This document shows positions 11,377 through 46,756 of a stretch of DNA of 64,000 nt, piece by piece. A model generated the notes under the pieces. The model made no database searches and was not told where the DNA came from. It worked only from the letters and a program-made list of their open reading frames with translations. The position numbers and the translations under genes are program-made. The stretch lies in assembly GCA_016793265.1 (NCBI GenBank), contig JAEUHT010000041.1, positions 1,865 to 65,864 on the forward strand, written 5' to 3'. The stretch comes from Planctomycetota bacterium (lineage in GTDB: Bacteria; Planctomycetota; UBA1135; UBA2386). Within the stretch, counting starts at the first letter, position 1. Every line of letters starts with the position of its first letter.

Positions 11377-11383
11377 GGGGGCT

Positions 11384-12841: not shown

Positions 12842-12855
12842 GGATTGGGCGCGCG

Positions 12856-12865
12856 AGCTTACCAT
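12856..12865. promoter_or_regulatory. Overlapping divergent -10 boxes for purF and the aminotransferase gene
   Basis: TACCAT (+, 12860-12865) 10 nt before ATG 12876; TAAGCT (-, 12861-12856) 14 nt before ATG 12841; 34-bp intergenic gap. Confidence 0.55.
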
Positions 12866-12875
12866 CCCGACCCGC

Positions 12876-13775
12876 ATGGCGAACCTCTGCAACATCGACG
12901 GTGTCGTCACCGCCGAAGCCGACGCCCGCATCCCCGTTCTCGACCGGGGGTTCCTGTTCGGCGACTCCGTCTACGAAGTGGTCAGGACCCATGGCGAAGT
13001 GCCCTTCGCCTGGCGCGAGCACTGGGCGCGCTTGTGCAGCTCGGCGGCCGGGCTACAGCTGCAGCTCGACCTCGACGAAGCGATCGTGGCGCGGCGCGTG
13101 GCGGCGACGCTGGCCGCGTCCGGTCCCGGCGATCACTACGTGCGCGTCATCGTCACGCGTGGCAGCGGGGAAGCGCCCAACATCGACCTCACCTACGCCA
13201 GGTCGGCGCCGCGGTGGGTGATCCTGTGCCGACCGCTGACCACCATCACCGGACTCGCCGCCAAGGTCGCCATCGTCGACCGGCTGCGCAACGACCGCCG
13301 CGCGCTCGACCCGGCGACGAAGAGCGGCAACTACCTCAACAACGTGCTCGCGCTGGCCGAGGCCAAGGCCGTCGGCGCCACCGATTGCCTGATGTGCAAC
13401 AGCCAAGGCTTCGTCACCGAAGCCTCGACGTCGAACGTCTTCGCGCGCCTGGGCGGCATCTGGTGCACGCCGCCGCTCGCGGCCGGCCTGCTCGCCGGCA
13501 TCACCCGGCGCCTCCTGCTCGACTTCTTGCCGACGATCGGCGAGTTGGTCGCGGAGCGCGAGATCACGGCCGACGAGCTGCGTGGTGCCGAAGAGGTGTT
13601 CCTGTCGAGCACCCTGCGCGACATCGGCCCGGTCACCCACGTCGACGGCCGCGCCCTGCACGGCGGCGCCGGCGGCCCACAGACCGCGCGCCTGCTGCCG
13701 CTCTTCCAGGCGCACATCGAACGCCGACTGCGGGAGTTCGACGCGCCGGAGTGGCGCCGCCTCACCAGGGCCTGA
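12876..13775 (+). CDS. Class IV PLP aminotransferase (IlvE/D-amino-acid/PabC family)
   Basis: DRGFLFGDSVYE, RVIVTRG, KSGNYL, EASTSNVF, LLAGITR, EEVFLSST. Confidence 0.92.
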   Translation: MANLCNIDGVVTAEADARIPVLDRGFLFGDSVYEVVRTHGEVPFAWREHWARLCSSAAGLQLQLDLDEAIVARRVAATLAASGPGDHYVRVIVTRGSGEAPNIDLTYARSAPRWVILCRPLTTITGLAAKVAIVDRLRNDRRALDPATKSGNYLNNVLALAEAKAVGATDCLMCNSQGFVTEASTSNVFARLGGIWCTPPLAAGLLAGITRRLLLDFLPTIGELVAEREITADELRGAEEVFLSSTLRDIGPVTHVDGRALHGGAGGPQTARLLPLFQAHIERRLREFDAPEWRRLTRA

Positions 13776-13798
13776 CGGGGTGTACGCCGCCGTCAGGC
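13770..13798. terminator. Hairpin between convergent genes
   Basis: gcctgacgg-N11-ccgtcaggc, 9-bp perfect stem; no U-tract. Confidence 0.4.
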
Positions 13799-13811
13799 GG
13801 GGTGCCGAAGC

Positions 13812-14210
13812 TCAGCTGAGGGCGTCGGCGAGGATGGACTGGATGCGTTCCAGCGCGGCGCGGTAGCGGTTCTTGGCCTGCTCGCTGCTCTTCACCGCGT
13901 TGACGATGCCCTCGAGGGAGTCGAAGGTCGGAGCCGCCTGCTTGCGCGGACGGCCAGGGCCACGCTTCGGCATGGCCGCGACCGGCGCCACACCCGCGGC
14001 CTTGGCCTTGGCGCGCGCCGCCTTGCCCTGGCCACGCGGGGCCGCCTTGACGATGCCCACCAGGGTCTGCGCCCGGCCGAACATGATGGGGTAGATCTTC
14101 AGCTTCTTCTTCGCCGCCGCGGCCTGGATGTCGGCGTACTTCGCGTCGCGGTTGCTCTTCAGGCTCTCGACGATGAACTCCATCGCCGAACTGCTCTTCT
14201 TGGCTGCCAT
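13812..14210 (-). CDS. Small basic AT-hook protein, candidate nucleoid-associated protein
   Basis: 132 aa, K/A/R-rich, PKRGPGRPRK motif, C-terminal amphipathic helices. Confidence 0.75.
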   Translation of the reverse strand: MAAKKSSSAMEFIVESLKSNRDAKYADIQAAAAKKKLKIYPIMFGRAQTLVGIVKAAPRGQGKAARAKAKAAGVAPVAAMPKRGPGRPRKQAAPTFDSLEGIVNAVKSSEQAKNRYRAALERIQSILADALS

Positions 14211-14326
14211 CGTATTGCTTGGTTCGTGAATGCGGCACAATCAGCCGCGGAACGGAAGCCGGCATTGTCCTGGGTCGGACAGGAGAAACAAGCGTGATGC
14301 AGTCATTGCCGCGGGTGCTGCTGCAC

Positions 14327-16144
14327 CTATTTGCCCGACCGGACCAGCCACGATTCCCCGGGAGCAAGCAACACGGTGTGGTGCGGCAATAGCGACTTCT
14401 GCAGGGCGTGCAGGTCCTTCAGGGTCACGCGGGTCACGTTCGGCAGCGTCTGACAGGCGAAGGCCTCGTCGAACAGCACCACGGTCGGCTTCAGCCTGGC
14501 CAGGATGGTGGCGATCTCCATGTTGCGCGGCGAGGCGATGACGACGTCCACTGGCCCCTCGGGCGCGTCGGCGACGGTCAGGTTCATACCCATCACGAGC
14601 ACGCGCGGCCCCTTGGCCAGCTCGACGAGGTAGCTGCAGTCATAGGCGACCTTGCCGTCGTCGCGCACCTTGCCGAGCAGGTGCACGAGCGCGCCCGAAC
14701 CCTGCCCGAATGTCTTGCCGGGCGCGAACAGCGGGATCCGATCCATCGGCACCGCCGGCAGGTGGAAGGCGATGTGCGTGAACACCGGCCGCGGCGGCTC
14801 CGCGCCCAGCATGCCGACCAGCAACTGGTCATTGCGGCGCGTCATGTCGAGCGGCGTGGTGAGCAGGCAGAACTCGAGGCCGCCCCACAGCAGGTTGCCG
14901 AGCTGTGGGCCGACCGGGTCGATGGCGAAGTTGCGGGTCGCCGATCGCACCAACCAACCACCCATCGGCAGACGGAACAGGCGCGCGGCGCCTTCGGGCA
15001 CCGGATCCTCGGCCTCCTTCGACACTGCGCGCAGCCGGTCGAACCACCACTGCGGCAGGCCGCGCGCGCAGATGCCGCCCACTTCGCGGTCCATGCGCCG
15101 GTGGATGCGCTGCAGCAACTCCAGATAGTCGACGCGCGGGAAGCGCGCCGTCGCGCTCTCGATCACCTCGAGTGTCTGCAGTCGCTTCAGCCCGCCGAGC
15201 GTCTCCGGCGGCTCGCTGCCGTCGTAGACCTGCGGCGGCTGCAGCTGCAGGTTGGCCGTCTGTTCGCGCCAGAACTCCGGCGGCTCGCACGGCGGCCGGG
15301 ACTGTCCCGGCTTGGGCGGGAATTCCGGAACCACACCGTTCAGCGCCGCCGTGTCGGCAACCAGCATGATGCTGCCGAACAGCCCGGGGTCGACGAGCGG
15401 GCTGCAGCCGAAGGTCCAACCGATGCGGGTCTGCGGCATCGCATCCGTGCTCTCGTCGAAGTCATTGACGACGATCTGCAGGTCGAACACGGCCCCGGCC
15501 TTCGCCTGCTGACCGGGCGGCAGGATCTCACCCCACGGCAACCGCGCCTCATAGGTGGTGATGCCCTGTTCCTTGTCGTGCAGCACGACCATACGGGCGC
15601 TGTCGCCGTCGAGCACGCGCGCGGTGCCGCGCAGCCGGTCCCACTGGATGATCTCGCGGCCGGTCTCGTCGCCGAACCAGAACTCGCGGTCGTCGGCGCG
15701 GCCGGGGTCGTTGCCGCCGGCGCGGGTGTCGCGCGCCGGATCGAAGGTCAACACCACGGAGTCGGCGACCGGGATCTCCGTCAGCAACAAGGTGCCGGCG
15801 TCGAGCGCACGGTGCCATTCGTCGCGCACGCTGAGCCCGACGTAGAGCGCGTCCGCATCCCACATCAGGAACGCCATCGCACTGAGGTCCGCGGGGCCGC
15901 GCCAGGCGCCGAAGGCGGTGCCGGACAGCTGCCGCCGGTCGGCGAGGGTGATCGCCGGCAACTCGGGCCAGTCGATCAGCGAACCGTCGATGGTGAGCGT
16001 GCGCTCGCCGCGCGGCAGCACCACTGCCTGCGGGATCAGCATCAGCTCCGGCCGGCGCTGGGGACCAGCGGCGGGCGGCGGTGCCTGCGCCGCCAGGACG
16101 GCGCCGAGGCCGAGCAAGGTCAGGGGGATTCGTTCCACGAGCAC
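14327..16144 (-). CDS. Secreted protein with CBM9-like sugar-binding domain and degenerate metallo-beta-lactamase-like C-terminus
   Basis: Signal peptide; TIDGSLIDW, LMWDADALYVGLSVRD, YEARLPW, IVVNDFD (CBM9-like); GWLVRSATRNFAIDP and SYLVEL (MBL-like, no HxHxDH). Confidence 0.65.
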   Translation of the reverse strand: MLVERIPLTLLGLGAVLAAQAPPPAAGPQRRPELMLIPQAVVLPRGERTLTIDGSLIDWPELPAITLADRRQLSGTAFGAWRGPADLSAMAFLMWDADALYVGLSVRDEWHRALDAGTLLLTEIPVADSVVLTFDPARDTRAGGNDPGRADDREFWFGDETGREIIQWDRLRGTARVLDGDSARMVVLHDKEQGITTYEARLPWGEILPPGQQAKAGAVFDLQIVVNDFDESTDAMPQTRIGWTFGCSPLVDPGLFGSIMLVADTAALNGVVPEFPPKPGQSRPPCEPPEFWREQTANLQLQPPQVYDGSEPPETLGGLKRLQTLEVIESATARFPRVDYLELLQRIHRRMDREVGGICARGLPQWWFDRLRAVSKEAEDPVPEGAARLFRLPMGGWLVRSATRNFAIDPVGPQLGNLLWGGLEFCLLTTPLDMTRRNDQLLVGMLGAEPPRPVFTHIAFHLPAVPMDRIPLFAPGKTFGQGSGALVHLLGKVRDDGKVAYDCSYLVELAKGPRVLVMGMNLTVADAPEGPVDVVIASPRNMEIATILARLKPTVVLFDEAFACQTLPNVTRVTLKDLHALQKSLLPHHTVLLAPGESWLVRSGK

Positions 16145-16698
16145 TGGATCCTCCGCAACGTCAGGTAATTCATGATGGCGTGCGCGGTGGTCGAACCGAG
16201 CAGGCCGAAGCCGGATTGCACCACGAGACCGAGCGCCACCGCGTGCACCAGCACGAACGGGGTCAGCCGCACGTTGCCGAGCCAGCTATTCAGCAGCACG
16301 CTGGCGGCAACCGAGCCGAACAGCCCGAACTGATCCTGCACCGCCAGCCGGAAGAACGTCTCTTCGGCAACCGCGCCGGTCAGCACGAGCGTCACCATCG
16401 CCTTGTCGCCGACGCCGGCCAACGAGGCATGGGCGAGCCGTTCGACCTCACGCACGCCTTGCCACCGGCGCGACGCGGCGTTGCCGAGCCACGCCATGAC
16501 GACGCCGAGGCCGAGCCCGACCGCCGAGGCCAGCAGCGGTCCGTGTCGGCCGACGGCGACCTCGGCCAGCGCCGCGCTGCGGTCGCGCACCGACAGCCAC
16601 CACAGGGCGGCGCCGAACAAACCGGCGAAGACGGCGACGCTGGCGACGACCACCGCCGCCGGGCTGGCCGGGCGCTCCGGTTCGGGAGCTTCGCTCAC
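16120..16698 (-). CDS. CPBP (Abi/Rce1-like) intramembrane glutamic metalloprotease
   Basis: AEETFFR and AHAIMN motifs within TM helices; GTG start overlaps the upstream TGA. Confidence 0.8.
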   Translation of the reverse strand: MSEAPEPERPASPAAVVVASVAVFAGLFGAALWWLSVRDRSAALAEVAVGRHGPLLASAVGLGLGVVMAWLGNAASRRWQGVREVERLAHASLAGVGDKAMVTLVLTGAVAEETFFRLAVQDQFGLFGSVAASVLLNSWLGNVRLTPFVLVHAVALGLVVQSGFGLLGSTTAHAIMNYLTLRRIQCSWNESP

Positions 16699-30991: not shown

Positions 30992-33943
30992 ATGAAGCGG
31001 CTGCTCGCGTTCCTGCTGTTGTTGTCGATCGGCACGCTCGTGCTGATGTTCGCGGTCGGCGAGGACCCGGCGGCGCGCGCCAACTCGCAGACCGGCGCGG
31101 CGGAGGAGCAGCCGCAGCCGGCGATCCCGCGGGTCGATCTCGGCGCCGGCCGCGTCAGCGCCTCGGTCGCGCAGACCGGACCGCTGCGCAACATCAACGA
31201 GATGCGCGAGGTGCAGCTCGGCAACGGCCGCGTGCGCCTCGAACGCGTCTACGTGCTGAACACCGCCGACAGCCGGCCGATCGGGCAGGGCCTGCAGCAG
31301 CTCGATGGCGTCAGCGTCGAGCTCTACGAACACGACCAGCACACGGCGACGATCGAGGCGAAGCAGGCGTTCGTCGAGCTGCAGCGCGATGCCAACGGCG
31401 TGCCGACGTTCAAGGGCAGCAAGACCTTCGACCTGCGCGACGCCGTGTTCCACACCCTGTCGGCGAGCCGCGTCGCCGGCCTGCGCTTCGAGCTCGGCAA
31501 CGTCAAGGCCACCGTCGAGGACGACGCCGTGATCCTGCGTTCGCCGGACGACCAGCCCGTGCTCGTCACGCTCGACGGCGACCGCCGCGGCACGCTGCGT
31601 GGCATCGGCCTGCAGGCGCGGCTGCCGCGCAACCAGCAGAACGGACTGCACCGCATCGATGTCGAGTTGCTGCGCCAGCCCGACCTCGTCGCCGAGGGCC
31701 TGCACGCGCGCGCCGCCGGTCGCCTGCACTACGTCGAGGACACCACCACCGGCGCGGCGATGATCACCATCGACGACGACGTGCAGCTCGACATGCAGGG
31801 CGGCCAGCTGGCCGTTCCCGGGCTGTCGCGGGCGCGCCGCGATGGCACCGGCGCCGACGAGACCGCCTCGGCGCGCGGTGATCAGTTCACCGCCTGGCTG
31901 GTGCGACTGCGCACGCCGCGCCCGAATGGCGACGAACACCAGGAGATGGTGTGGCAGCGCGCGCGCCTGATCGGTGCTCCGGCGCGCATCGAGGTGCCCG
32001 GCGGCATCGTCACCACGCCGCGCCTGGCCGTGCTGCCGGGCTTGTCCGGGGAGCCACTGCAGGTCACCGCGCTCGGCGGTGAATCGCGGCTCGAAGCGCA
32101 CGACCTCGGTCCGACGGCGAAACCCGCCGCCCCGATCGTCGCCACCGCGCGCCGGCGCACGCACCTCGTGCGCCCCGGCGAGTACCTCGGCAGCGTGCAC
32201 CGCGCCTACGGCTTCCCGAGCTGGTCCTTGCGCGGGCTCGACCAGTTGCAGCTGGTGATCTGCGAGGGTCAGGCGACGCTCGACAACGGCCAGCGCCGCA
32301 TCGAGGCCGCCGACGGCGTGCGCGTGCTGCGGCGCGACGGCACCGAGGCCGGCATCGTCGAGGGCCTCGGCGAGGTGCGCTGCGTGGTGCGCCCGCGGCG
32401 CGCGGGACAGCCGGAGCTGATCGCCACCGGCGACGACGGCTTCCTCCTGATCGCGACGCCGACCAGCGAACGGCTGCGCATCGGCCCTGTTGCGGCCGCG
32501 GCAGAGCGGGTCGCGCAGCACCACTTCGTCGTCGACGACGGCGATGCCCGCCTCGACGGTCATGGCAGTTGTGAGCTCACCGGTGCCGCCGACCGCCGCC
32601 GGCTGCAGGTGCGGTCGCCGGGCGCCGACGTGCGGGTGCGGGTGCTGGGCCAGGGCCTCGAACTGGCGCGCGTGCTGCGGCTCGACGCCGAGCTCGACGT
32701 CGACTCGGAGGAGCTGCTGGAGCTGACCGTCGACGGCCTGCCACTGCAGGTGACGTGGCGGCACCGCGACGAACTGCTGACGGCGACCGCCCCGCGCCTG
32801 ACCCGCATCGGCGCGCGTTCCTTGCGGTTGCTGCCGGTGCCAGCGCACGACGCCGAGGCCTTCCGCAGCCTCACCGAGGCCGATCGCCGACCGCTGCTGC
32901 GCCGCGAGACCGCGGCCGGCGAACGTGCGGAGCTGCGCGGCCCGCGCCTCGACGTGCACCAACTCGGCGGTCGCGACGTGCTGCTCGACGCCGAGGCCGT
33001 CGGTGACGACCGCCCCCACGTGACCGCCGTGCTGCCACCACAGCGAGGCGGCGCGCCGACCACCATCGACTGCCTGGCGCAGCGGCTGCGGCTGCTGCCC
33101 TTCGTGGTCACTCGGCAGGCGATGCAGGCCCACCTCGGCGGCCGGCCCGGGCTCACCGACGACATCGTCGGCAGCACCTTGTCGCGGCCGTGGCTGCTCG
33201 TCGACCAAGTCCTCGACTTCCGCCTCGACGACCCGCACCACGGCCACAGCGAAGGGCGCGCCCACCGGCTGTTGGTGTCGCAGGGTGGGCAGGCGGCGCT
33301 GTTCGTCGGCGACCCCGACGGCGCGCCGGCCTTCGTGCGGCAGCGACAGCAGGGCCGCGAGGTGATCACCGAGGGTGCGCGCGTGCGGGTGTTCCGCGAC
33401 GAGGTGGTGCGGCTGCAGACGCTGTCGACCTACGACAACCGCTCGCTGACGGTGCTGCCGACCGTGACGTTGCACGAAGCCGCGGCCGACGGTCTCCTGT
33501 CGCACATGCGAGCGACCTGCCGCGGTGACATCGAGGTGTGGCCCGAAGCCGTGACGTTCGGCGGGCCGGTGCTGGCGCGCGGCATCCACCCGGATGGCGA
33601 GGACGATCCCGACGGCATCACCATCGACGCCGAGCGCCTGCACCTCGTGCGCCACCCGGAGACCGGGCGCATCCTCAGCGCCGATGCCCGCAACGTGCAC
33701 GTCGACTGGTCGCGTCTGACCGCGCGCGGCACCCGCCTCGAACTCGACGAACGCAGCAAGTCGTGCGTCATCCATGGCGAACCCGACGCCGAGGTCGAGC
33801 TGCCGAACGGCGCCTTCTTCAAGGCGCCCCGCCTCGAGGTGTGGTACCAGACGATGGCCATCCGCAGCTTCCGCGGGCACGGCGGCCAGCGGGTCGTCGC
33901 GCCGGCGTCGAACCCGACCCCGAGCCCGGCAGGTCCACAGTGA
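30992..33943 (+). CDS. Very large membrane-anchored LptC/LptA(OstA)-like beta-jellyroll protein
   Basis: N-terminal TM; LptC-like VSVELY..TIEAKQA; C-terminal LptA-like ARGTRLELD..IHGEPDAEV..APRLEVWY; lies between kdsD and lptD. Confidence 0.65.
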   Translation: MKRLLAFLLLLSIGTLVLMFAVGEDPAARANSQTGAAEEQPQPAIPRVDLGAGRVSASVAQTGPLRNINEMREVQLGNGRVRLERVYVLNTADSRPIGQGLQQLDGVSVELYEHDQHTATIEAKQAFVELQRDANGVPTFKGSKTFDLRDAVFHTLSASRVAGLRFELGNVKATVEDDAVILRSPDDQPVLVTLDGDRRGTLRGIGLQARLPRNQQNGLHRIDVELLRQPDLVAEGLHARAAGRLHYVEDTTTGAAMITIDDDVQLDMQGGQLAVPGLSRARRDGTGADETASARGDQFTAWLVRLRTPRPNGDEHQEMVWQRARLIGAPARIEVPGGIVTTPRLAVLPGLSGEPLQVTALGGESRLEAHDLGPTAKPAAPIVATARRRTHLVRPGEYLGSVHRAYGFPSWSLRGLDQLQLVICEGQATLDNGQRRIEAADGVRVLRRDGTEAGIVEGLGEVRCVVRPRRAGQPELIATGDDGFLLIATPTSERLRIGPVAAAAERVAQHHFVVDDGDARLDGHGSCELTGAADRRRLQVRSPGADVRVRVLGQGLELARVLRLDAELDVDSEELLELTVDGLPLQVTWRHRDELLTATAPRLTRIGARSLRLLPVPAHDAEAFRSLTEADRRPLLRRETAAGERAELRGPRLDVHQLGGRDVLLDAEAVGDDRPHVTAVLPPQRGGAPTTIDCLAQRLRLLPFVVTRQAMQAHLGGRPGLTDDIVGSTLSRPWLLVDQVLDFRLDDPHHGHSEGRAHRLLVSQGGQAALFVGDPDGAPAFVRQRQQGREVITEGARVRVFRDEVVRLQTLSTYDNRSLTVLPTVTLHEAAADGLLSHMRATCRGDIEVWPEAVTFGGPVLARGIHPDGEDDPDGITIDAERLHLVRHPETGRILSADARNVHVDWSRLTARGTRLELDERSKSCVIHGEPDAEVELPNGAFFKAPRLEVWYQTMAIRSFRGHGGQRVVAPASNPTPSPAGPQ

Positions 33944-36426
33944 GCCGGCGGTCGCGACTGCTGCGCCTGGTGGCCGCCCACGTGGCCGTGGTCGCCTTCG
34001 CCATGGCCCAGCAGGAGCCGGCGCCGAGCGTGCCCGGCCTGCTGCTCGACCACGAACACAGCTTCCTCGAGGAGGTCGTGCGCGACGACTACCGCGAGGT
34101 GCGTGTGTTCGGCGGCTTCCGCTTCCGCTCGCCGGCCTACGGCCTCGAGCTGCGCGGCGAGAACGCGCTGTTGCTGCTCGACCTCGACGAGACCGAACGT
34201 GCCGCCAGCAGGCGTTCCGGCAGCGGCCTGCCACGCCGTGGCATCGAGCTGCCGGAGCCGCGCCGCCGGCTGTCGCCAGCGCAGATCCGCGAACGCCTCG
34301 ATCACACGCTGCGCGCCATCGGTCGCACCGACGGCCTGCCCGCGTCGAGCCGCACCGACCTCGCGCTCGACGTGCTGCGCTACGTCTACTGCGAGGGCGG
34401 CATCGTCGTCGTGCGCGACGGCCGCGAAGTGCTGCGCTGCGACCGGCTGTGGCTCTCGCCGCTCGAAGACCGCGTCGTGGTCGAGAACGCGGAGCTGCGC
34501 TACGTGACGCCGGGCCGCAGCAGCAACGAGACGCTGGTCGTGCGAGGTCCACGGCTGGTGCGCGAAGGCAGCCGCTGGACCGGGCGCGACGTGACGATGA
34601 CGACCTGCAACGCCGGTCGCCCACACGCCGCCGCCGCCGCCGGCGAGATCGAGATCATCGAGCGTGAGGGCGAGTTCGAGATCCGGTCGCGCGGCCAGAC
34701 CCTGCAGATCGGCGGCACCGACGTGCTGCCGCTGCCGGACGCACACATCTTCACCAAGAGCCAGAGCGAGTTCCCGATCCGCCGCGCCAGCGCCGGCTAC
34801 TCGGGCCGCGAGGGCGCCGAAGCCGAGATCGTGCTCGGCCTGCCGTGGAACAACACCGGCGGCCGGCTGCACCACTGGCTGACCGACCGGCCGGCGGTGG
34901 AGTTCCGCGGCGAATGGGAGCTCGGGCTCGGCTGGATCGAACGCCGCGGCTTCCCCGTGGACGCCGCGCTCAGCTACCGCGCCGCCGACCTCTACGAGGG
35001 CCGCACCGAGGGCTTCTGGATCGACGACCAGGGCACCGACCTGCGCGAGATCCGCACCTGGCGCGACGGCAGCGCCATCGGCACCGGCCAGCGCGCCCTG
35101 CTGCGCACGCAGAACCGCGTGCGGCTCGGTGACTCCACCCACCTCGACCTCGTCGCCTTCGATGCCACCGACCCCGGCGTGCTGTCGGAGTACTTCGCCG
35201 GCGACTACCGCACCCAGGAAGTGCCCGAATCGGGCCTCTACCTGCACCACGCCGCCGGCAATTCGCTGCTGACCGTGGGTACCCGCCACAACCTCGCCGA
35301 CTTCAGCTACCGCGACGACCGCGCGCTGGCGGACCGCTTCGTCGAAGAATCGCCGGTCGTCACCTACCAGTGGCTGGCGCAGCCGATCGCCCACTTGCCG
35401 TGGGGAACGCCGCTGATCGCCGACCTCGAGACCGGGGTCGGCGAGCGCCGCAGCGACTACGACGACCGCGCCGGCGTGCGCGTCGGCGACAGCACCTTGC
35501 GCGCCGACCAGCTCGCCGAACTCTCGGCGCCGTTCCACCTCGGGCCGCTCAACGTGCGCCCCTACACCAACGCGCGCGGCACCTGGTACGACGACACCGT
35601 CGCCGGCGGCGACGACGGTCGCATCGCCTTCGAAGGCGGCGTGCAGATCGGCACGCGGCTGCAGCGCACCTGGTCTTGGATCCGCGACGACGGCGAGCAG
35701 AACGTGCGCCACGTCATCGCGCCGCGCCTGACCTGGCGCAACCGCTTCTACGTCGATGACGACCCGTCGACGTTCTTCCAGTTCGACCCGCTCGACCAGC
35801 TCGCCGAACAGCAGCTGCTTCGCTTCGAGGTGCGCAACCTGCTGCAGACGATGGGCGACGTGCAAGGTCGGCCGGAGCCGCGCGACTTCGTCATGTTCGA
35901 CCTGGCGCAGGACGTCTGGCCGCAGGCCGATCGTGACAACCAGGGCGAACGGCTCGGGCTCTTGCACTACGACCTGCTGCTGCGGCCGCGGGTGCAGTGG
36001 CTGCCGCTGGAGACGTTCTCGTTCGCCGTCTACGGCGATCACGACTGGAAGACCGGCTTGCGCACGCTCGACACCGAGCTGCAGATGGGCCGCATCGCCG
36101 GCATCACCTGGGCGGCCGACTACCGCACCGACGCGCTCGTCGCCGGCGCCGTGGGCGTCTCCGCGGCGACCGAGCTGTTCGATCGATGGGACCTCTACGC
36201 GCGCAGCCAGCGTGACATCGAGAACGACGCCTGGCTCAACTACTCGTTCGGCCTGCGTCGCAACGACCACGACTGGTCGATCCTCGCCGGCGTCGTCTAC
36301 AACCCGTTCTCGGACGAGACGACGTTCCGCATCGAGTTCCTGCCGCGCTTCGGCGGCATGAACGGCGGCCGCCGCGAGCGCTTCGGCGGCATGGACCCGA
36401 TGAGCCCGCTCGCCACGAGCTTCTGA
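33940..36426 (+). CDS. lptD: LPS assembly outer-membrane protein LptD
   Basis: OstA-like N-domain (YCEGGIVV..LRCDRL, TMTTC), long barrel with RHVIAP, FFQFDPLD, FEVRNLLQ; GTG overlaps the upstream stop. Confidence 0.8.
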   Translation: MSRRSRLLRLVAAHVAVVAFAMAQQEPAPSVPGLLLDHEHSFLEEVVRDDYREVRVFGGFRFRSPAYGLELRGENALLLLDLDETERAASRRSGSGLPRRGIELPEPRRRLSPAQIRERLDHTLRAIGRTDGLPASSRTDLALDVLRYVYCEGGIVVVRDGREVLRCDRLWLSPLEDRVVVENAELRYVTPGRSSNETLVVRGPRLVREGSRWTGRDVTMTTCNAGRPHAAAAAGEIEIIEREGEFEIRSRGQTLQIGGTDVLPLPDAHIFTKSQSEFPIRRASAGYSGREGAEAEIVLGLPWNNTGGRLHHWLTDRPAVEFRGEWELGLGWIERRGFPVDAALSYRAADLYEGRTEGFWIDDQGTDLREIRTWRDGSAIGTGQRALLRTQNRVRLGDSTHLDLVAFDATDPGVLSEYFAGDYRTQEVPESGLYLHHAAGNSLLTVGTRHNLADFSYRDDRALADRFVEESPVVTYQWLAQPIAHLPWGTPLIADLETGVGERRSDYDDRAGVRVGDSTLRADQLAELSAPFHLGPLNVRPYTNARGTWYDDTVAGGDDGRIAFEGGVQIGTRLQRTWSWIRDDGEQNVRHVIAPRLTWRNRFYVDDDPSTFFQFDPLDQLAEQQLLRFEVRNLLQTMGDVQGRPEPRDFVMFDLAQDVWPQADRDNQGERLGLLHYDLLLRPRVQWLPLETFSFAVYGDHDWKTGLRTLDTELQMGRIAGITWAADYRTDALVAGAVGVSAATELFDRWDLYARSQRDIENDAWLNYSFGLRRNDHDWSILAGVVYNPFSDETTFRIEFLPRFGGMNGGRRERFGGMDPMSPLATSF

Positions 36427-36453: not shown

Positions 36454-37467
36454 TCAGAACGACCAGCCGACGCTCAGCACGATGCGGTGGTCGGCGCGGT
36501 CGAGGCCCGGCGACGGGGTGTTGTCCCAGTCCATCACGTGCGCGAGCGAGGCGATCATGCTCGCGGTCAGCGACGTCGTGATCTCGGTCTTCGCCTGCAG
36601 GTAGACGTCCCGGCTGTCCTCGACCGACGGGAACGCCTCGACGCCGTGCACGAGCTTGGTCTTGTCGCTGAGCTGGTGCGTCAGCTTGTAGGCGACGCGC
36701 GCGGCCATGTAGTCCTGCGATGGCGTGTTGCTGCGGTAGTTCTCGTTGAAGTACGACAGACCGGCTTCGAACGTCAGGCCCGTCGTGCCGTTGTCGATGA
36801 TCGTGTAACCGAGACCGACACCGCCCGTGAAGCGCAGGTTGATGTCCGCGAGCGTGTCGCCGAGCACACGGGCCGTGGCCAGCGAGTACCAGCGCTTGCT
36901 CAGGAAGTAGTCGTACTTGAGGCCGCCGCCCGCGCGACGCTGATTGAGCGTCCAGGCGTTGGTGGTCTTGTTGCGGTCCTCGCTGTAGTCCCAGGCGGCG
37001 TCGAACGAGATGCGGTCGATCTCGGTGCGGCGCGAGGCGTCCAGCGCGGCGCCGACGGCGCGGCGCTCGGTATTGCCATCGGTCAGCAGGCCATTGAGGG
37101 TGATCGAGCCCGTCCAGGCCGGCTCCGGCTTGGCCGGCGGGTTGATCATGCCGAGGTTGTCGAGCGCCAGCGACGTGGTGTCGCCTTCGAGCCGCAGGTT
37201 GCCGCCTTCGAGGCCGACGACGCGGCGCTTGAGCAGATCGCCCGACTTGGTCTGCAGGTCGACCTGGTCCTTGGTGACCATGTCGCTGATGTTGGTCATC
37301 GGCACGGTGACGTCGCCGAGCAGCGGCGAGGCGATCGTGACCTTGCCGTCGGCCATCGTCTTGATCGTGCCCGTTAGGACGTCACCGTTGGCGAGGGTGA
37401 TCTTGTCCTGGGCGAGAGCCCCGGCGGCGAGGGCCGAGAGGGCGGCGAGGAACTTGAGGTTCTGCAT
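36454..37467 (-). CDS. DUF481/YdiY family outer-membrane beta-barrel
   Basis: Signal peptide; DKITLANGDVLTG N-domain; WTG..GNT, KYDYFLSKRWY, C-terminal SVGWSF. Confidence 0.88.
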   Translation of the reverse strand: MQNLKFLAALSALAAGALAQDKITLANGDVLTGTIKTMADGKVTIASPLLGDVTVPMTNISDMVTKDQVDLQTKSGDLLKRRVVGLEGGNLRLEGDTTSLALDNLGMINPPAKPEPAWTGSITLNGLLTDGNTERRAVGAALDASRRTEIDRISFDAAWDYSEDRNKTTNAWTLNQRRAGGGLKYDYFLSKRWYSLATARVLGDTLADINLRFTGGVGLGYTIIDNGTTGLTFEAGLSYFNENYRSNTPSQDYMAARVAYKLTHQLSDKTKLVHGVEAFPSVEDSRDVYLQAKTEITTSLTASMIASLAHVMDWDNTPSPGLDRADHRIVLSVGWSF

Positions 37468-37610
37468 GTGGTTTCCGGGAAATCGGGCCGAGGATCATGT
37501 CGAAGCGGCGATTGGCGGCCAAGGGAAATCGAACCGGCGCGCCGTGCCCGAACCGCTCCCGTCCAGCGGCCCCTGGCTCCCGCAAGCCACGCCGCTACCG
37601 TTGCCGAGCC

Positions 37611-38141
37611 ATGAGCATGGACGCCAAGCAGACGGAAGCGCGCAGCCTCATGCAGTGGCTGCGCGACATGCCGAGGTGGAAGAAGATCGCCGTCGCGGCC
37701 GGGCTCGGCACCGTCGCCGTCGGCGCGGTGCTGCACGTGACCACCGGCGGCGCGACCACCGGCAGCGGCGCCCCGGGCGGCCTGCAAACGAGCCTCGTCG
37801 AGGGCAGTGGCAAGAGCGGCTCCACGGCGGCGATCGAACCGGCGTCGCAGGGCGTGTTCCGCCTCGGCTTCAGCTTCCTCGCCGGCTTCTGCATCGGCAG
37901 CTTCCTGCGCGCTACGTTGCGCATCGCCGCGATCGCCTTCGGCTTCTGGCTCTGCATGACCTTCGTGCTCAGCTACATGGGCATCGTCGTCGTCGACTGG
38001 AACGCCATGGACGCGCTCTGGAACCGCTTCGCCGAGAACGTCGGCAAGGAGTGGGCGGACTTCCAGACCTTCATCACCGGCAGCCTGCCCGCCGCCGGTC
38101 TCGCCGTCACCGGCCTGATGGTCGGCCTCAAGAAGCACTGA
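37611..38141 (+). CDS. FUN14 family membrane protein
   Basis: LGFSFLAGFCIGSFLR..RIAAIAFG..LSYMGIVVVDW..GLMVGLK pattern. Confidence 0.8.
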   Translation: MSMDAKQTEARSLMQWLRDMPRWKKIAVAAGLGTVAVGAVLHVTTGGATTGSGAPGGLQTSLVEGSGKSGSTAAIEPASQGVFRLGFSFLAGFCIGSFLRATLRIAAIAFGFWLCMTFVLSYMGIVVVDWNAMDALWNRFAENVGKEWADFQTFITGSLPAAGLAVTGLMVGLKKH

Positions 38142-38177
38142 GCGCCGCGGCTCGGGCGGCGCGCGGCCGTCGCCGCG

Positions 38178-39770
<1,593 letters not shown>

Positions 39771-39852
39771 GGTGGGGCGAAGAGGGTACGGCGGGGGTCG
39801 GCGGAATCCAGCGCTACCGCCGCCGGCGCCCGCCGGACTATGCTGCCCGGCC

Positions 39853-40212
39853 GTGTTGGCCTTCTTCGACAGCCTGGGCATGCCCGAGATGATCCTGCTG
39901 GTGATCGTCGGGCTCGTGCTCTACGGCCGCAACCTGCCGGAGGCGGCGCGCAACTTCGGTCAGGTGCTGGCCAAGTTCCGCCGCGGCTTCCACGAGTTCA
40001 AGGACCAGCTCGACCGCGACGGCCAGCTGCGCGAGATGAAGAAGGTCATCGACGACGCCAAGCGCGACGTCACCAGCGCGACCGCGGTGCCGCGGGCGAT
40101 CGCCGACCCAGGCCGTGCGCTGCGCGACCTGACCAACGACACGCTGGTGTCGCCGATCAACGAGCCGACGACGACGACTCCGCCGCCGCCCCAGCAGCCG
40201 CCCGCCGACTGA
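39853..40212 (+). CDS. Twin-arginine translocase TatA/TatB family subunit
   Basis: LGMPEMILLVIVGLVLYG.NLPEAARNFG...KFRR. Confidence 0.88.
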   Translation: MLAFFDSLGMPEMILLVIVGLVLYGRNLPEAARNFGQVLAKFRRGFHEFKDQLDRDGQLREMKKVIDDAKRDVTSATAVPRAIADPGRALRDLTNDTLVSPINEPTTTTPPPPQQPPAD

Positions 40213-40218
40213 TCCCGG

Positions 40219-40815
40219 CTACTTGCCGCCCGGCTTCTTGTGCGTGGCTTTGATGGCCTGCTCGCCGGCGTCGAAGATGCTCATCCAGTCGTCGCTCTTG
40301 GCCGGCGCCGTGCTGCGCTTCTTGGCCTCGTCCTCACGCCGCTTCTGCTCCTGCTCCACCCACTGCGGGTAGTCCTTGTGGATCTCCGTCAGCACCTTCT
40401 TGTTCTCGCTGACGAGACCGACGTACGGGAACAGGTCGCAGTCATGCTCCTTCTGGATGCGCGCGAACTCCTCGAACGTCGTCATCACCGGCATGGCGAC
40501 GCAGACGATGTCGCCGAACACGTCGAGCGGCACGATGGTGTGCTTGAACAGCACTTCCTTGGGCAGCCGGTTCTTCGCTTCGTCGCTGATCTGGTAGTTG
40601 CCAGCCATCAGGAACGGCAGGTTGAAGCACTCGGTGACGATCTTGGCGAGGTCCCACTCGGTGATGTGACCGCCGCTGACGAGCGTCTGTACGAACGGCT
40701 CGGAGTGTTTGTCCTGCGAGTAGAGCGCGTCGGTCACCACCTCCGACGGCACGACGCCGCGTTCGGTGAGGATCTCGGCGAGGCGGACCGACGTGATCTT
40801 CTCGATGCCCTTCAC
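40219..40815 (-). CDS. Stand-alone MshEN / T2SSE-N-terminal domain protein (no ATPase)
   Basis: RLAEILTERGVVPSEVVTDALYSQ 24-residue MshEN-like motif, then LPKEVLFKHTIVPL..VAM; GTG 40815 preferred over ATG 40866 because of the promoter motif. Confidence 0.75.
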   Translation of the reverse strand: MKGIEKITSVRLAEILTERGVVPSEVVTDALYSQDKHSEPFVQTLVSGGHITEWDLAKIVTECFNLPFLMAGNYQISDEAKNRLPKEVLFKHTIVPLDVFGDIVCVAMPVMTTFEEFARIQKEHDCDLFPYVGLVSENKKVLTEIHKDYPQWVEQEQKRREDEAKKRSTAPAKSDDWMSIFDAGEQAIKATHKKPGGK

Positions 40816-40824
40816 CCGCCGATC

Positions 40825-40851
40825 ATCGGTCCGGGCCACGCTGCGGCTTGA
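40825..40851 (-). promoter_or_regulatory. Sigma28-like promoter of the MshEN gene
   Basis: TCAAG-N16-ACCGAT, 9 nt before GTG 40815. Confidence 0.45.
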
Positions 40852-40878
40852 GGCAGCCGTTGCCATGGCGATCTGGGG

Positions 40879-42378
40879 TCAGGAGTAGATCAGGAACGTC
40901 AGCACCGCGTGCACCGTCAGCACCAGCGCCATGCCGATGACGATGGCGGCGTTGACGGCCTCGCCGACGTCGGCGCCCGAACGTTTCGGGCCGGTGCCGA
41001 GGTGGTAGCAGCAGATGGCGACGAGATAGCCGGACAGTGTCGATTTCCCCGACACCACGAGCACGTCGCGCGCGTCGACGGTGGCGAAGTAGGCGTTGAC
41101 CCAGCCGGCGGTGGTGATCGCGGCGACGCTCTTGGCGGCGAACAAGGACGCCAGCGCCGCGGCCATGACGCCGCCGAGCGTGACCAGCGGCATCGCGATC
41201 ACCATGCCCCACACGAGCGGCGTCAGCAGGTAGTCCGCCGGCCGCACGCCCATCATCTGCAGCGCGGCGATCTGGTTGGTGCGCTTCATCGTGCCGAGGC
41301 GGGCGGCGGCGCCGGCGGCGATGCGCGCGGTGAAGAAGAAGCCGCTCAGCATCGGCACCAGGACCGCGGTGGCGACCTTGCCGGTGCCGGTGAGCAGGGC
41401 AGACTCGAAGCCGCCGTGGATCGGGTTGTTGCGCAGCGCGAAGAACGTCGCCAGACCGCCGATCACGGCGCCGGCGATGGCCACGAACAAAGCCGGTTCG
41501 AGCGCGAAGCGCGCCGTCGTGCGCAGCACCTGGCCGAGTTCGAACGGCGGCAGCCGACGCAGCGACTCGAACACCGTCTCGCAGATCGCCCCGAGCCGCA
41601 ACAACGCGCGCCGCACGCCGTGCAGCGGCAGCAGGTCCTGGTTCGCCACTTCGCCGTTCTGCTTCATCACCGCGCTGCCGGTGGCGCGGTAGCCGGGCGC
41701 CTCGAGCCGCAGCGTGCGCGCGGCGGCGTCGAGCACGAGTACGCCGTCGTGCACACCATCGAAGGCGGCGACGTCATGGGTGATGACGAGCGTGGTGCGC
41801 TCGACATCCTGGTCGTGGGCGTCGCGCAGCAACCGGGCGATGTGGCGCGCTGCCTCCGGATCGAGGCCGGCGGTCGGTTCGTCGCAGAGCAGCAGCCGCG
41901 GCGACGATGCCAGCGCCCGGGCGACGGCGAGTCGCTTGCGCATGCCACCGGACAGTTGGGCGGTGCGTTCGGGCGGCGATTCGAGACCGGCCTGGGCCAG
42001 CAGTCCGGGCGCCAACCGCGGCGAACGACCGGCTGCGCGCAGCGCCATCTCGACGTTCTGGCGCGGTGTCAGTTCGTCGAGCAGGCCTTCGTCCTGCAGG
42101 ATCGCAGCCACCTTGTCGCGCAGCGATTCGGCGTGATCGGCGGTCACCGGCTCGCCCCACGCCAGCAGTTGTCCGCTCAGCCGCGGCGCCGGTTCGCGCG
42201 CTTCGACCAGCCCGGCCAGCACGCGCAACAGCGACGACTTGCCGCCGCCGCTGGCGCCGACGAACAGGTAGAAGCCGTGGGGCGCCAGCGCCAGGTCGAC
42301 CGCTTCGAGCAGCACCTCCTCGCCGGTCGGCCGGCTGTGCGCGAGGCCGAAGCCGCGGAACTCGAGCGCGACGGTCAT
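40879..42378 (-). CDS. Fused MlaF-like ATPase + MlaE-like permease
   Basis: GASGGGKS, LSGGMRKR, CDEPTAGLDP, ITHD; then ARIAAGAAARLGTMKRTNQIAALQMMG and VGEAVNAAIV. Confidence 0.88.
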   Translation of the reverse strand: MTVALEFRGFGLAHSRPTGEEVLLEAVDLALAPHGFYLFVGASGGGKSSLLRVLAGLVEAREPAPRLSGQLLAWGEPVTADHAESLRDKVAAILQDEGLLDELTPRQNVEMALRAAGRSPRLAPGLLAQAGLESPPERTAQLSGGMRKRLAVARALASSPRLLLCDEPTAGLDPEAARHIARLLRDAHDQDVERTTLVITHDVAAFDGVHDGVLVLDAAARTLRLEAPGYRATGSAVMKQNGEVANQDLLPLHGVRRALLRLGAICETVFESLRRLPPFELGQVLRTTARFALEPALFVAIAGAVIGGLATFFALRNNPIHGGFESALLTGTGKVATAVLVPMLSGFFFTARIAAGAAARLGTMKRTNQIAALQMMGVRPADYLLTPLVWGMVIAMPLVTLGGVMAAALASLFAAKSVAAITTAGWVNAYFATVDARDVLVVSGKSTLSGYLVAICCYHLGTGPKRSGADVGEAVNAAIVIGMALVLTVHAVLTFLIYS

Positions 42379-42385
42379 CGCCGGC

Positions 42386-43852
42386 TCACCTCGGCCGCAG
42401 GTCGGCGGGCAGGCGGGCGAACGCGACCACGTCGCCGCGGCCAGCCTCGGGCTTGAACGCGAACACGCCGTGCACGCTGCCGCCGCGCATCACCGCCGCG
42501 CCGAGCAGGTCCGCCGTCGCCTTGGCCTCGGCGGTCAGCGGTTGGTTGAGCGGAGCGCCATCCGGGCCCGCGCTGCGCAGCGAGAGGCCATCGGCGCCGG
42601 CGGGCAGTTCCTCGCTGGCGAAGCGGCTGCCGGCGGTGCCGCCGAGATCCGGCGGGGCGTCCTCGATCACCAGCGCGGCGAGATCGGCACCTTGTGGGTC
42701 GACCCAGACGCGGCCGGCGCGACGCACCAGTCCATCGGGCAGCAGCACCTCGAGCTTCTCGTCGGCGATGTCCGGGGCGCCACCGAAGGTGTCGTGTTCG
42801 GTGTAGCTGCCGTCGACGAGGCTGCGGGCGGTGACCACGACGGCGCGGCCCGAACGATCGAGGAACAGCGTGCCGGTGCCCTGGCGGTGCACGGGGTCAT
42901 CGGGGCTGAAGGTGTCGCGCTCGACGGCGTCGTAGGTGATGCGCACGAGCACCACGTCGTCGGGTGTCGTGTGCGGCACCGCCTTCGGCTGCACCAGCGC
43001 GTTCGCCGGCACGCCGGCGACCTCGACCTGCGGCCGCTGCGCCTGCGCCGCCGTGCGGTAGCCATCCTGCACCGGTCCGCCGCGGCCCGGTTCCGTGTAG
43101 TAGCTGACGTACGGCGACACGATCGCGCTGGCATCGGTGAGCGTGAAGCCAGAGAACAACGCGCCGCTGACCGACGGTCGCGCCACCCAGAACTGCGTCT
43201 GCTCGGTCACCGTCTGCCGGAAGGCGCGCGTGATGCGCACCGTGAGTTCGACGTGGGTGCCGGCCGGTGCCAGCTGCACCTTGCGCACGTCGCCGGTCTG
43301 CATGCCGCGGAAGATCACGGCGGCCCCTGGCTTGAGGCCGTGGTTCTCGGGCACCAGCAGGGTCATCAGCAGGTCGCCGTGGCCGAGGTCCTCGAGCGAT
43401 TCGGCTTCGGCCGGTGGCCGTTCGCTGCCGTTCAACAGGCTCGCCGGCGCCAGCGGTGAACCGCGTTCGGCCGGGGTCTGGAAGGCGATGTAGGAGTCGC
43501 GCACGAGCGTGTCGAGGCCGCTGGCGCCGCCGGTCAGGCCGCCGAACCGCGGCGTGACGATCCAGAACTGGCTGTTGACGCAGGCGTGGGCGGCGCCAGC
43601 CGGGTCGAGCAACAGCTGCGCGACCGCCTTGTCGCCGTCGCCGCTGATCGACACCGACCGCACGGTGCCGACGGTGACCCCGCGGAAGCGCACGTCGGCG
43701 CCGTCTCGCAGGCCGCGGGCGTCCTTGAACTCGACCCGCAGCGCGAGGCCAGGGCGATCGTCCAGGTTGCGCAGGATGCGCACGAACCAGACCGCTGCGA
43801 CGATCGCCGCGGCGAGGGTCAACACGCCGATCAGGTAGCGCAGGCGGTGCAT
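42386..43852 (-). CDS. Two-MCE-domain PqiB-like protein with C-terminal degenerate trypsin-like domain
   Basis: TM; FKDARGL..GADVRFRGVTVGTV..FWIVTP..GLDTLV; second GLKPGAAVIFRGMQTGDV..FWV; C-terminal GTG..VVTARSLV..DLAAL. Confidence 0.85.
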   Translation of the reverse strand: MHRLRYLIGVLTLAAAIVAAVWFVRILRNLDDRPGLALRVEFKDARGLRDGADVRFRGVTVGTVRSVSISGDGDKAVAQLLLDPAGAAHACVNSQFWIVTPRFGGLTGGASGLDTLVRDSYIAFQTPAERGSPLAPASLLNGSERPPAEAESLEDLGHGDLLMTLLVPENHGLKPGAAVIFRGMQTGDVRKVQLAPAGTHVELTVRITRAFRQTVTEQTQFWVARPSVSGALFSGFTLTDASAIVSPYVSYYTEPGRGGPVQDGYRTAAQAQRPQVEVAGVPANALVQPKAVPHTTPDDVVLVRITYDAVERDTFSPDDPVHRQGTGTLFLDRSGRAVVVTARSLVDGSYTEHDTFGGAPDIADEKLEVLLPDGLVRRAGRVWVDPQGADLAALVIEDAPPDLGGTAGSRFASEELPAGADGLSLRSAGPDGAPLNQPLTAEAKATADLLGAAVMRGGSVHGVFAFKPEAGRGDVVAFARLPADLRPR

Positions 43853-43954
43853 CGGGTCAGGTTCTCCGGCGCGATCCTCGGATCGGCGCGTCCTTGTGGC
43901 CAACCGGCGGTCGCCTTCGTCACGCGCGCCACCGCTGGCGGTCGACCGGGAGGC

Positions 43955-46756
<2,802 letters not shown>

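Follow-up and report, generated by a model that had tools for sequence, protein, structure and literature searches.

MCE systems are the main candidates for the movement of phospholipids across the double-membraned envelope, and how they bridge the periplasm is still debated. Here we describe a two-gene MCE locus at positions 40879 to 43852 of a 64,000-nucleotide stretch of DNA from a Planctomycetota bacterium (GenBank assembly GCA_016793265.1, contig JAEUHT010000041.1, positions 1,865 to 65,864); the whole of that stretch is referred to below as the window. The first gene encodes a 488-amino-acid MCE protein (P0001) that has two MCE domains and ends in a catalytically dead protease-fold domain, and the second encodes a single chain in which an ATP-binding cassette (ABC) ATPase is fused to an MlaE-type permease.

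Escherichia coli LetB (YebT, LetAB; PDB 6V0C, 9N8W) is the best match of the MCE protein and, like it, carries tandem MCE domains after one N-terminal helix. LetB, however, has seven MCE domains, no extra C-terminal domain and a non-ABC partner, LetA, whereas the planctomycete protein has two MCE domains, a dead HtrA-fold end and an ABC-MlaE partner, with no PqiA/LetA-family gene found in the genome. E. coli PqiB (PqiABC; PDB 5UVN) is likewise a multi-MCE tunnel protein with a distal end-piece after its last ring, but its three rings are followed by a helical needle held by the lipoprotein PqiC and its partner is PqiA; the locus described here encodes neither PqiA nor PqiC, and its end-piece has an all-beta protease fold. 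The MlaFEDB complex (PDB 6XBD, 6ZY2, 6Z5U) shares with our pair an engine made of an MlaE-family permease and an ABC ATPase, as well as an anchored MCE protein, and by analogy is the likely model for stoichiometry and coupling. In MlaFEDB the ATPase and permease are separate chains, a STAS subunit (MlaB) is present, the single MCE domain of MlaD is accompanied by a short helix, and the route is completed by MlaC and MlaA. In our locus, in contrast, the engine is fused, two rings are predicted, MlaC and MlaA were not found, and no STAS family matched either protein in our Pfam scan, for which families were reported at E ≤ 0.01.

The available text of two recent papers describes ABC-driven MCE systems that, like this pair, have no MlaC shuttle and carry a distal end-piece of their own, namely Brucella abortus Mpc (Lannoy et al. 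2025, PMC12436622) and Veillonella parvula MlaEFD (Grasekamp et al. 2023, PMC10665443). As set out there, Mpc consists of a STAS-MlaE protein (MpcE), MlaF, a PqiC-like lipoprotein and MpcD, which has one MCE domain and long helices; the STAS domain, the separate MlaF, the MpcD layout and the lipoprotein are all missing from our locus. V. parvula MlaD, unlike the protein described here, ends in helices and a beta-barrel, and in these texts neither system is described with a second ring, a protease-fold domain or an engine fused into one chain. The same part of Grasekamp et al. 2023 (PMC10665443) presents MlaEFD without MlaABC as widespread, with long MlaD proteins that have helical and beta-barrel ends, the barrel being absent from the Planctomycetes-Verrucomicrobia-Chlamydiae (PVC) phyla.

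The fold of the C-terminal domain is that of another family altogether. It has the double beta-barrel of the HtrA proteins (DegS, DegP, DegQ, HtrA1-3), with Z scores of 14-16, but differs from them in lacking the catalytic His and Ser (58/58 members), in having no PDZ domain and no Pfam Trypsin_2 match, and in being fused to an MCE protein.

According to the available text of Isom et al. 2017 (PMC5561183), four architectures encompass >97% of MCE proteins, and multi-MCE types are specific to Proteobacteria and lie mostly beside PqiA domains. The family described here breaks both of these rules, since it combines LetB-like, putatively stacked domains with an ABC engine in an uncultured group of Planctomycetota and carries a repurposed protease fold at its end. 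Full-text literature searches, which did not cover Supplementary Table S1 of Isom et al. 2017, returned no MCE protein with a protease-like domain, no two-MCE protein paired with an ABC engine and no fused MlaF-MlaE. An earlier note, made from the letters of the window, had proposed that the architecture is distinct, and in the literature searched no characterised MCE class has this layout. We found no description of a two-ring MCE protein with a dead-protease end and a fused ABC-MlaE partner, and the layout seems not to have been described before for this transporter family. It adds a case of a protease fold recruited to a non-catalytic role. Comprising two genes and no other conserved partner, the module is also compact, which makes it tractable for asking how ATP hydrolysis couples to a stacked-ring tunnel.

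Gene layout and domain composition

Both genes lie on the minus strand and are made up as follows.

42386..43852, minus strand: gene of the MCE protein, 488 amino acids, in the order membrane helix, MCE domain 1, MCE domain 2, linker, dead HtrA-fold domain (open reading frame, two Pfam MlaD stretches, homologues, AlphaFold2 model)
43757..43849, minus strand: N-terminal membrane-anchor helix, residues 2-32 (AlphaFold2 helix; hydrophobic stretch kept in homologue alignments)
43418..43753, minus strand: MCE domain 1, residues ~34-145 (best Pfam MlaD stretch, 36-125; LetB match over query residues 16-235)
43028..43378, minus strand: MCE domain 2, residues ~159-275 (second MlaD stretch; LetB MCE2-MCE3 chain 6vci_C matches query residues 159-235)
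42953..43027, minus strand: linker, residues 276-300 (poor conservation; predicted local distance difference test, pLDDT, of 65-88)
42389..42952, minus strand: HtrA-type (chymotrypsin-fold) C-terminal domain without catalytic triad, residues 301-488, with the tail LPxxLRP (AlphaFold2, Foldseek, VIA, HHalign)
42379..42385, minus strand: spacer of 7 bases between the two genes (direct sequence reading)
40879..42378, minus strand: fused ABC ATPase-MlaE permease gene, 499 amino acids (open reading frame, Pfam)
41704..42378, minus strand: ABC ATPase half, residues ~1-225 (Pfam ABC_tran; Walker A, signature, Walker B, H-loop)
40882..41613, minus strand: MlaE-type permease half, residues ~256-499 (Pfam MlaE, residues 295-495; TIGR00056, residues 256-498)

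The MCE reading frame is open over 42386-43903 on the minus strand, and the list of open reading frames starts it at a TTG at 43903. The ATG at 43852, which gives 488 amino acids, is the likely start of the gene because homologues keep the N-terminus MHRLRYLIG and because GGAGAA is found 9 bases before it.

The Pfam scan matched MlaD (PF02470) to the MCE protein at 83.4 bits (cut-off 25.1) in two stretches and reported no other family on it; both domains were also recovered in the genome search. Compared with solved structures, the protein was closest to LetB/YebT (E 1e-32) and then PqiB (1e-13) in phmmer, and the family profile gave LetB at 2e-88, PqiB at 5e-31 and MlaD at 3e-7. Foldseek with the full-length model ranked them in the same way (6e-18, 3.5e-15 and 5.8e-6, respectively). 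The closest relatives of the MCE part in sequence and fold are thus LetB and PqiB, not MlaD, in keeping with the two PqiB/LetB-style domains that the earlier note had recognized. Among NCBIfam families PqiB (NF008070) was best, over residues 16-224, at 82.8 bits and below its cut-off of 525, and the single-MCE MlaD family TIGR04430 reached 42 bits, below its cut-off of 135.

The full-length AlphaFold2 model (pLDDT 89.0, predicted template modelling score, pTM, 0.51) has an N-terminal helix at residues 2-32 followed by two beta domains. The loops at residues 108-115 of MCE domain 1 and 230-240 of MCE domain 2 have a pLDDT below 50 and are located where the pore-lining loops lie in MCE proteins, and the first of them is the probable pore-lining loop of its domain in this model. 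The linker that follows is poorly conserved, with a mean majority-residue share of 0.30 and 0/25 positions at ≥0.9. More than 120 full-length homologues from many sources were found at 58-100% identity. Among scored candidates, 256 relatives fell at E ≤ 0.001; the best 120 listed are 481-514 amino acids long and 58-100% identical, and those that carry an organism name are proteins of Planctomycetota metagenome-assembled genomes (MAGs).

The C-terminal domain has a catalytically dead HtrA-type fold. Its AlphaFold2 model, built from an alignment of 58 rows that reaches 24% identity, is all-beta, with a pLDDT of 94.3 and a pTM of 0.90. The earlier note had called this domain trypsin-like and suggested a Foldseek comparison; against the PDB, that comparison placed DegS, DegP, DegQ and HtrA1 on top (E 2e-6, probability 1.00, TM score 0.5-0.6). 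The VIA search, which is independent of Foldseek, returned HtrA3 (Z 16.0, root mean square deviation 3.6, 165 residues aligned) and DegQ (Z 15.9), with further matches to the S1C domain of RsgI9 (7SJY, an S1C-NTF2 bi-domain; Z 15.5), Deg5 and MamO (5HM9; Z 14.7), and chymotrypsin-fold proteins made up 50/50 rows shown. HHalign aligned the family with eight HtrA-type domains of the same genome over 153 columns (86.8% probability, E 4e-6). Fold and profile comparisons thus bear out the trypsin-like assignment, to which Pfam is blind: the Pfam and NCBIfam scans placed no protease or PDZ family on the protein. Matches of the family profile to DegP and DegS in the PDB were weak in this domain (E 0.01 to 1), consistent with the fold and insufficient alone. 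A prediction of a trimer from three copies of the domain scored 0.00 against a mark of 0.42, which bears on oligomerisation in neither direction.

All of the landmarks first noticed in this domain (GTG, VVTARS, DLAAL and LLGAAV) are in the translation, and the motifs GxG, T-x-x-(His position), DLAxL and G-x-x-G fall in register with the genome's own HtrA proteases in the HHalign comparison. In this register the catalytic His corresponds to S344, the Asp to D390 and the Ser to L450, which agrees with the His-to-Ser change read earlier at VVTARS. Across the 58 members the His position holds Ser in 46, Ala in 5, Thr in 2 and Arg in 2, with Cys, Pro and Gln besides, and His in 0/58. The position of the nucleophile holds Arg in 27, Leu in 11 and others (Glu, Gly and His among them), and Ser in 0/58, so that the nucleophile reported as missing is missing throughout the family. 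Asp is kept at its own position in 53/58.

Conservation is uneven along the domain. The first barrel (residues 301-396) has a mean majority-residue share of 0.57, the same as the MCE domains, and 14/96 of its positions reach ≥0.9; the second barrel (397-477) has a share of 0.32 and 0/81 such positions; the last 11 residues return to 0.57, with 2/11. In the tail LPxxLRP, P482 is kept in 58/58 and R486 in 56/58. Residues kept in the first barrel include E311 (52/58), D313 (55/58), D319 (55/58), D347 (58/58), E365 (57/58) and W383 (57/58), and R343 (53/58) and Y307 are also conserved in the domain. The second barrel of proteases holds the nucleophile and the specificity pocket, and its poor conservation here argues against canonical peptide binding or capture and speaks for a conserved site or contact surface on the first barrel. 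The first barrel equals the MCE domains in conservation even among members with as little as 28% overall identity, which points to selection, not decoration.

A search of 1.84 billion representative proteins with residues 290-488 alone yielded 65 proteins at E ≤ 0.001. Thirty-four of these are 473-542 amino acids long with the match at the C-terminus, the others are shorter and probably partial, and no protease or protease-length relative with another layout was among the 65. By this search the end domain is limited to the family of the MCE protein. A genome-wide Trypsin_2 search gave 15 matches, 0 of them on this contig. Elsewhere in the genome, on contig C136, a single long open frame carries three Trypsin_2 stretches in tandem and, after them, a PDZ domain.

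The second open reading frame, 7 bases downstream, joins an MlaF-like ATPase to an MlaE-like permease, as had been read from its sequence: Pfam places ABC_tran (PF00005; 83.5 bits, residues 25-170) and MlaE (PF02405; 106 bits, residues 295-495) in one chain. The ATPase motifs are intact, with Walker A GASGGGKS, signature LSGGM, Walker B LLLCDEP and H-loop ITHD. Counted with our own patterns in the 120 listed homologues, they are kept in 120/120, 119/120, 120/120 and 114/120, respectively, and both ABC_tran and MlaE are present in 120/120 listed relatives. With >100 full-length homologues for each of the two genes, these features lie well outside what chance would give. In the ESM Atlas, 11 clusters hold proteins with ABC_tran and MlaE in one chain, and the commonest labelled phylum of one cluster is Pseudomonadota. 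The fused engine may occur outside Planctomycetota; when a divergent fused member served as query, 42 of the 120 proteins listed were fused, all organism names among these were Planctomycetota and no Pseudomonadota member appeared.

No Pfam match to MlaC (PF05494), MlaA (PF04333) or PqiA (PF04403) was found in the whole assembly, which is 81% complete; the earlier statement that none of their genes is nearby therefore holds well beyond the locus. For pqiC it holds at the locus, the sole PqiC-like (ABC_trans_aux) gene of the genome being on another contig. That contig (C190) carries, at 10500-16295, a STAS-MlaE fusion, a separate ABC ATPase (MlaF), an open reading frame with an MlaD domain and the ABC_trans_aux protein, and its gene content resembles the layout of the Brucella Mpc system. 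Contig C221 (1-4931) encodes an MlaE of 265 amino acids, an ABC ATPase and a 387-amino-acid single-MCE MlaD protein. The persistence of our pair beside two ordinary MCE systems suggests a separate task.

Conservation and distribution of the gene pair

A search of 185,579 species genomes found 96 loci that encode a relative of the MCE protein, 80 of which were kept for comparison. Neighbours were counted by tblastn of the window proteins on the kept loci, and only loci with room for the neighbour were counted. A single-piece match to the fused ABC-MlaE protein lay directly downstream on the same strand in all of the loci with room (72/72), and the gap between the two genes was ~7-108 bases in 60 related loci. 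gyrB lay directly upstream on the same strand in 59/67 related loci with room. Divergent loci (33-38% identity) retained the pair, that is, two MlaD stretches and then fused ABC_tran and MlaE, and had other neighbours: uracil-DNA glycosylase, sucrose-phosphate synthase, redoxin, MurJ and a protein kinase. Because the pair is kept in those loci beside other neighbours, the conserved unit is the two-gene module, and the position at gyrB is clade-level synteny. The site directly downstream of gyrB, which the earlier note had made part of its description, is thus conserved in the main clade and lost in divergent members that keep the pair; it is context and not part of the system.

The loci are labelled Planctomycetota or unclassified "bacterium", with Brocadiaceae, Kuenenia, Singulisphaera and Phycisphaerales labels as well. 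One MAG contig labelled "Luminiphilus sp.", a gammaproteobacterium, carries a planctomycete-type dnaN-gyrB-MCE-ABC/MlaE block with 56-74% identity to the window proteins, and is probably mis-binned. A single protein served as query at E ≤ 1e-5 against an even sample of 401 Planctomycetota genomes, and 11 of these, this genome counted, had the end domain. They include 4/5 other genomes of the same family; for the remaining three families of the order the count was 0/18, and the domain also occurred in three distant families.

DNA nearly identical to 40879-43852 (half or more of sampled words) was present in 14 runs labelled as sludge, activated sludge or bioreactor metagenomes, which span nine studies besides the possible source run. 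Contigs from 4/4 metatranscriptome-labelled runs (four studies) covered parts of both genes at low depth, and one 151-base piece from an RNA library, with 1 difference, bridged the stop-start junction at 42305-42455. Parts of the genes that these contigs leave uncovered carry no information.

Proposed working and alternative explanations

With moderate confidence we favour the reading that the pair is a self-contained, ATP-driven inner-membrane MCE transporter with two rings and a non-catalytic HtrA-fold distal module. By analogy with the described systems, the fused ABC-MlaE protein would form a homodimer, the counterpart of MlaF2E2, and the 488-amino-acid MCE protein a hexamer anchored by six N-terminal helices. 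The two MCE domains would stack as two rings, in the manner of LetB and PqiB, and enclose a short hydrophobic tunnel on top of the permease, through which lipid would presumably be moved at the expense of ATP. Six dead HtrA-fold modules would then stand at the distal end of the tunnel. The end-piece may be a structural and binding module whose conserved first barrel and C-terminal tail either pack against the mouth of the tunnel or bind a partner in the periplasm or outer membrane; it would take the place that other MCE systems give to the MlaC shuttle, to the helical needle with PqiC or to a beta-barrel. The earlier note had likewise imagined an ATP-driven tunnel with a cap for substrate capture or outer-membrane docking, roles that the domain could have in such an assembly. 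Such an assembly may reach no further than the peptidoglycan layer, or may require a partner. More tentatively, the domain could be a third kind of MCE periplasmic end-piece, a six-domain pseudo-protease crown that grips a protein or peptidoglycan partner through its first barrel and LPxxLRP, with lipid handed over there and the fused ABC engine below a LetB-like double ring.

Several observations weigh against this picture of a distal module on an ATP-driven tunnel. The full-length pTM of 0.51 and the 25-residue, poorly conserved linker mean that the domain could hang sideways instead of capping the tunnel. The conserved gene pair encodes no outer-membrane partner, and two rings and one end domain would span ~100 Angstrom, a figure that we take from the dimensions of LetB rings and HtrA domains, and so may not reach the outer membrane. 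The mapping of the catalytic positions comes from a single profile alignment, with a probability of 87%. The permease half is divergent: it reaches 108.7 bits with MlaE, where the genome's two other MlaE genes reach 249.3 and 222.4, and scores 85.2 bits with NCBIfam TIGR00056, under the cut-off of 212.2. With a genome that is only 81% complete, the missing partners are not proven absent. The RNA-library contigs are a weak hint of expression of the pair, as such libraries may contain DNA and there was no silent control stretch.

A domain that hangs sideways might be a lateral sensor or regulator, which would gate the transporter on binding a signal in the periplasm (a peptide, a metal or an envelope fragment). 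Its near structural neighbours include chymotrypsin-fold domains from non-protease contexts, RsgI9 and MamO, which we take to be catalytically degenerate binding modules; the acidic and aromatic set conserved in the first barrel (E311, D313, D319, D347, E365, W383) and the long and variable linker, together with the low full-length pTM, fit the same idea. We nevertheless think it unlikely, as the ligand or signal is not known, the barrel with the S1 pocket is the least conserved part, and the domain stands at the extreme C-terminus after ring 2 in every member, at the site of the distal end-pieces in PqiB and MlaD. Somewhat less likely again is an ordinary minimal phospholipid transporter of the MlaEFD type, in which no new mechanism is at work and the additional ring, the fused engine and the end domain are embellishments peculiar to the lineage. 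The presence of two ordinary MlaE/MlaF/MlaD loci in the genome would allow the pair to be a diverged paralogue, and the available text of Grasekamp et al. 2023 (PMC10665443) reports MlaEFD without MlaABC as common across diderm phyla and long MlaD proteins with varied C-terminal extensions as 85% of homologues. However, the MCE domains are much nearer to LetB and PqiB than to MlaD, and both the conservation of the first barrel and the persistence of the pair beside the two ordinary systems, described above, speak for a function of its own.

That the end domain is still a hydrolase, using non-canonical residues, appears very improbable. It retains an Asp at the triad position in 53/58 members, a Ser at the His position in 46/58, and R343 (53/58) and D347 (58/58) adjacent, but His as a base and Ser as a nucleophile are each found in 0/58, the nucleophile position is variable, the barrel of the oxyanion hole and S1 pocket is poorly conserved and Pfam protease models do not match. 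An active protease of the usual kind was also considered and is unlikely, with His and Ser missing in 58/58 members. Least credible of all, and hardly conceivable, is that the fusion or the extra domain is an artefact of assembly or sequencing, a concern that the earlier note had raised for the fusion. The fused frame recurs in 120/120 listed homologues and in 72/72 related loci with room, the MCE protein has its end domain in >120 full-length homologues, and near-identical DNA comes from nine other studies; these refute an artefact, and nothing was found in its favour. The distal-module reading of an ATP-driven two-ring transporter is the one we retain.

Neighbouring genes and other features of the window

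The pair is flanked on the minus strand by two genes, of which the second is given as context only.

40219..40866, minus strand: stand-alone MshEN-domain protein, 215 amino acids (Pfam MshEN just under cut-off; PDB matches)
43955..46417, minus strand: gyrB, upstream neighbour (open reading frame)

The end of gyrB is 102 bases upstream of the MCE gene on the same strand, and the MshEN protein starts 12 bases downstream of the fused gene, also on the same strand. The latter scores 22 bits with Pfam MshEN, against a cut-off of 23.1, and matches the N-terminal domains of PilF, PilB and MshE in the PDB. In the ATPases PilB, MshE and PilF the MshEN domain is N-terminal and binds cyclic di-GMP. A gene for this protein was found ≤400 bases downstream in 59/69 related loci, where it is ~45-78% identical and more conserved than the MCE protein, and was absent from the divergent loci. 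Judged from its sequence and position, it could be a cytoplasmic regulator or third component of the transporter, or could reflect mere synteny.

A promoter and terminator scan of 39800-44100 gave one promoter-like site, on the plus strand at 39866, and one terminator-like site inside the MCE gene, where shuffled sequences led us to expect 1.5 ± 1.6; neither result is informative. Further downstream, a block at 36454-40212 is kept with the locus in many relatives and comprises a TatA-like gene (plus strand), an ABC-F ATPase (minus), a FUN14-family membrane protein (plus) and a DUF481 protein (minus). Beyond it, an open frame of 962 amino acids at 33538-36426 on the plus strand matches no Pfam family at E ≤ 0.001 and overlaps an antisense frame of equal length, as is common in this DNA of 65-73% G+C.

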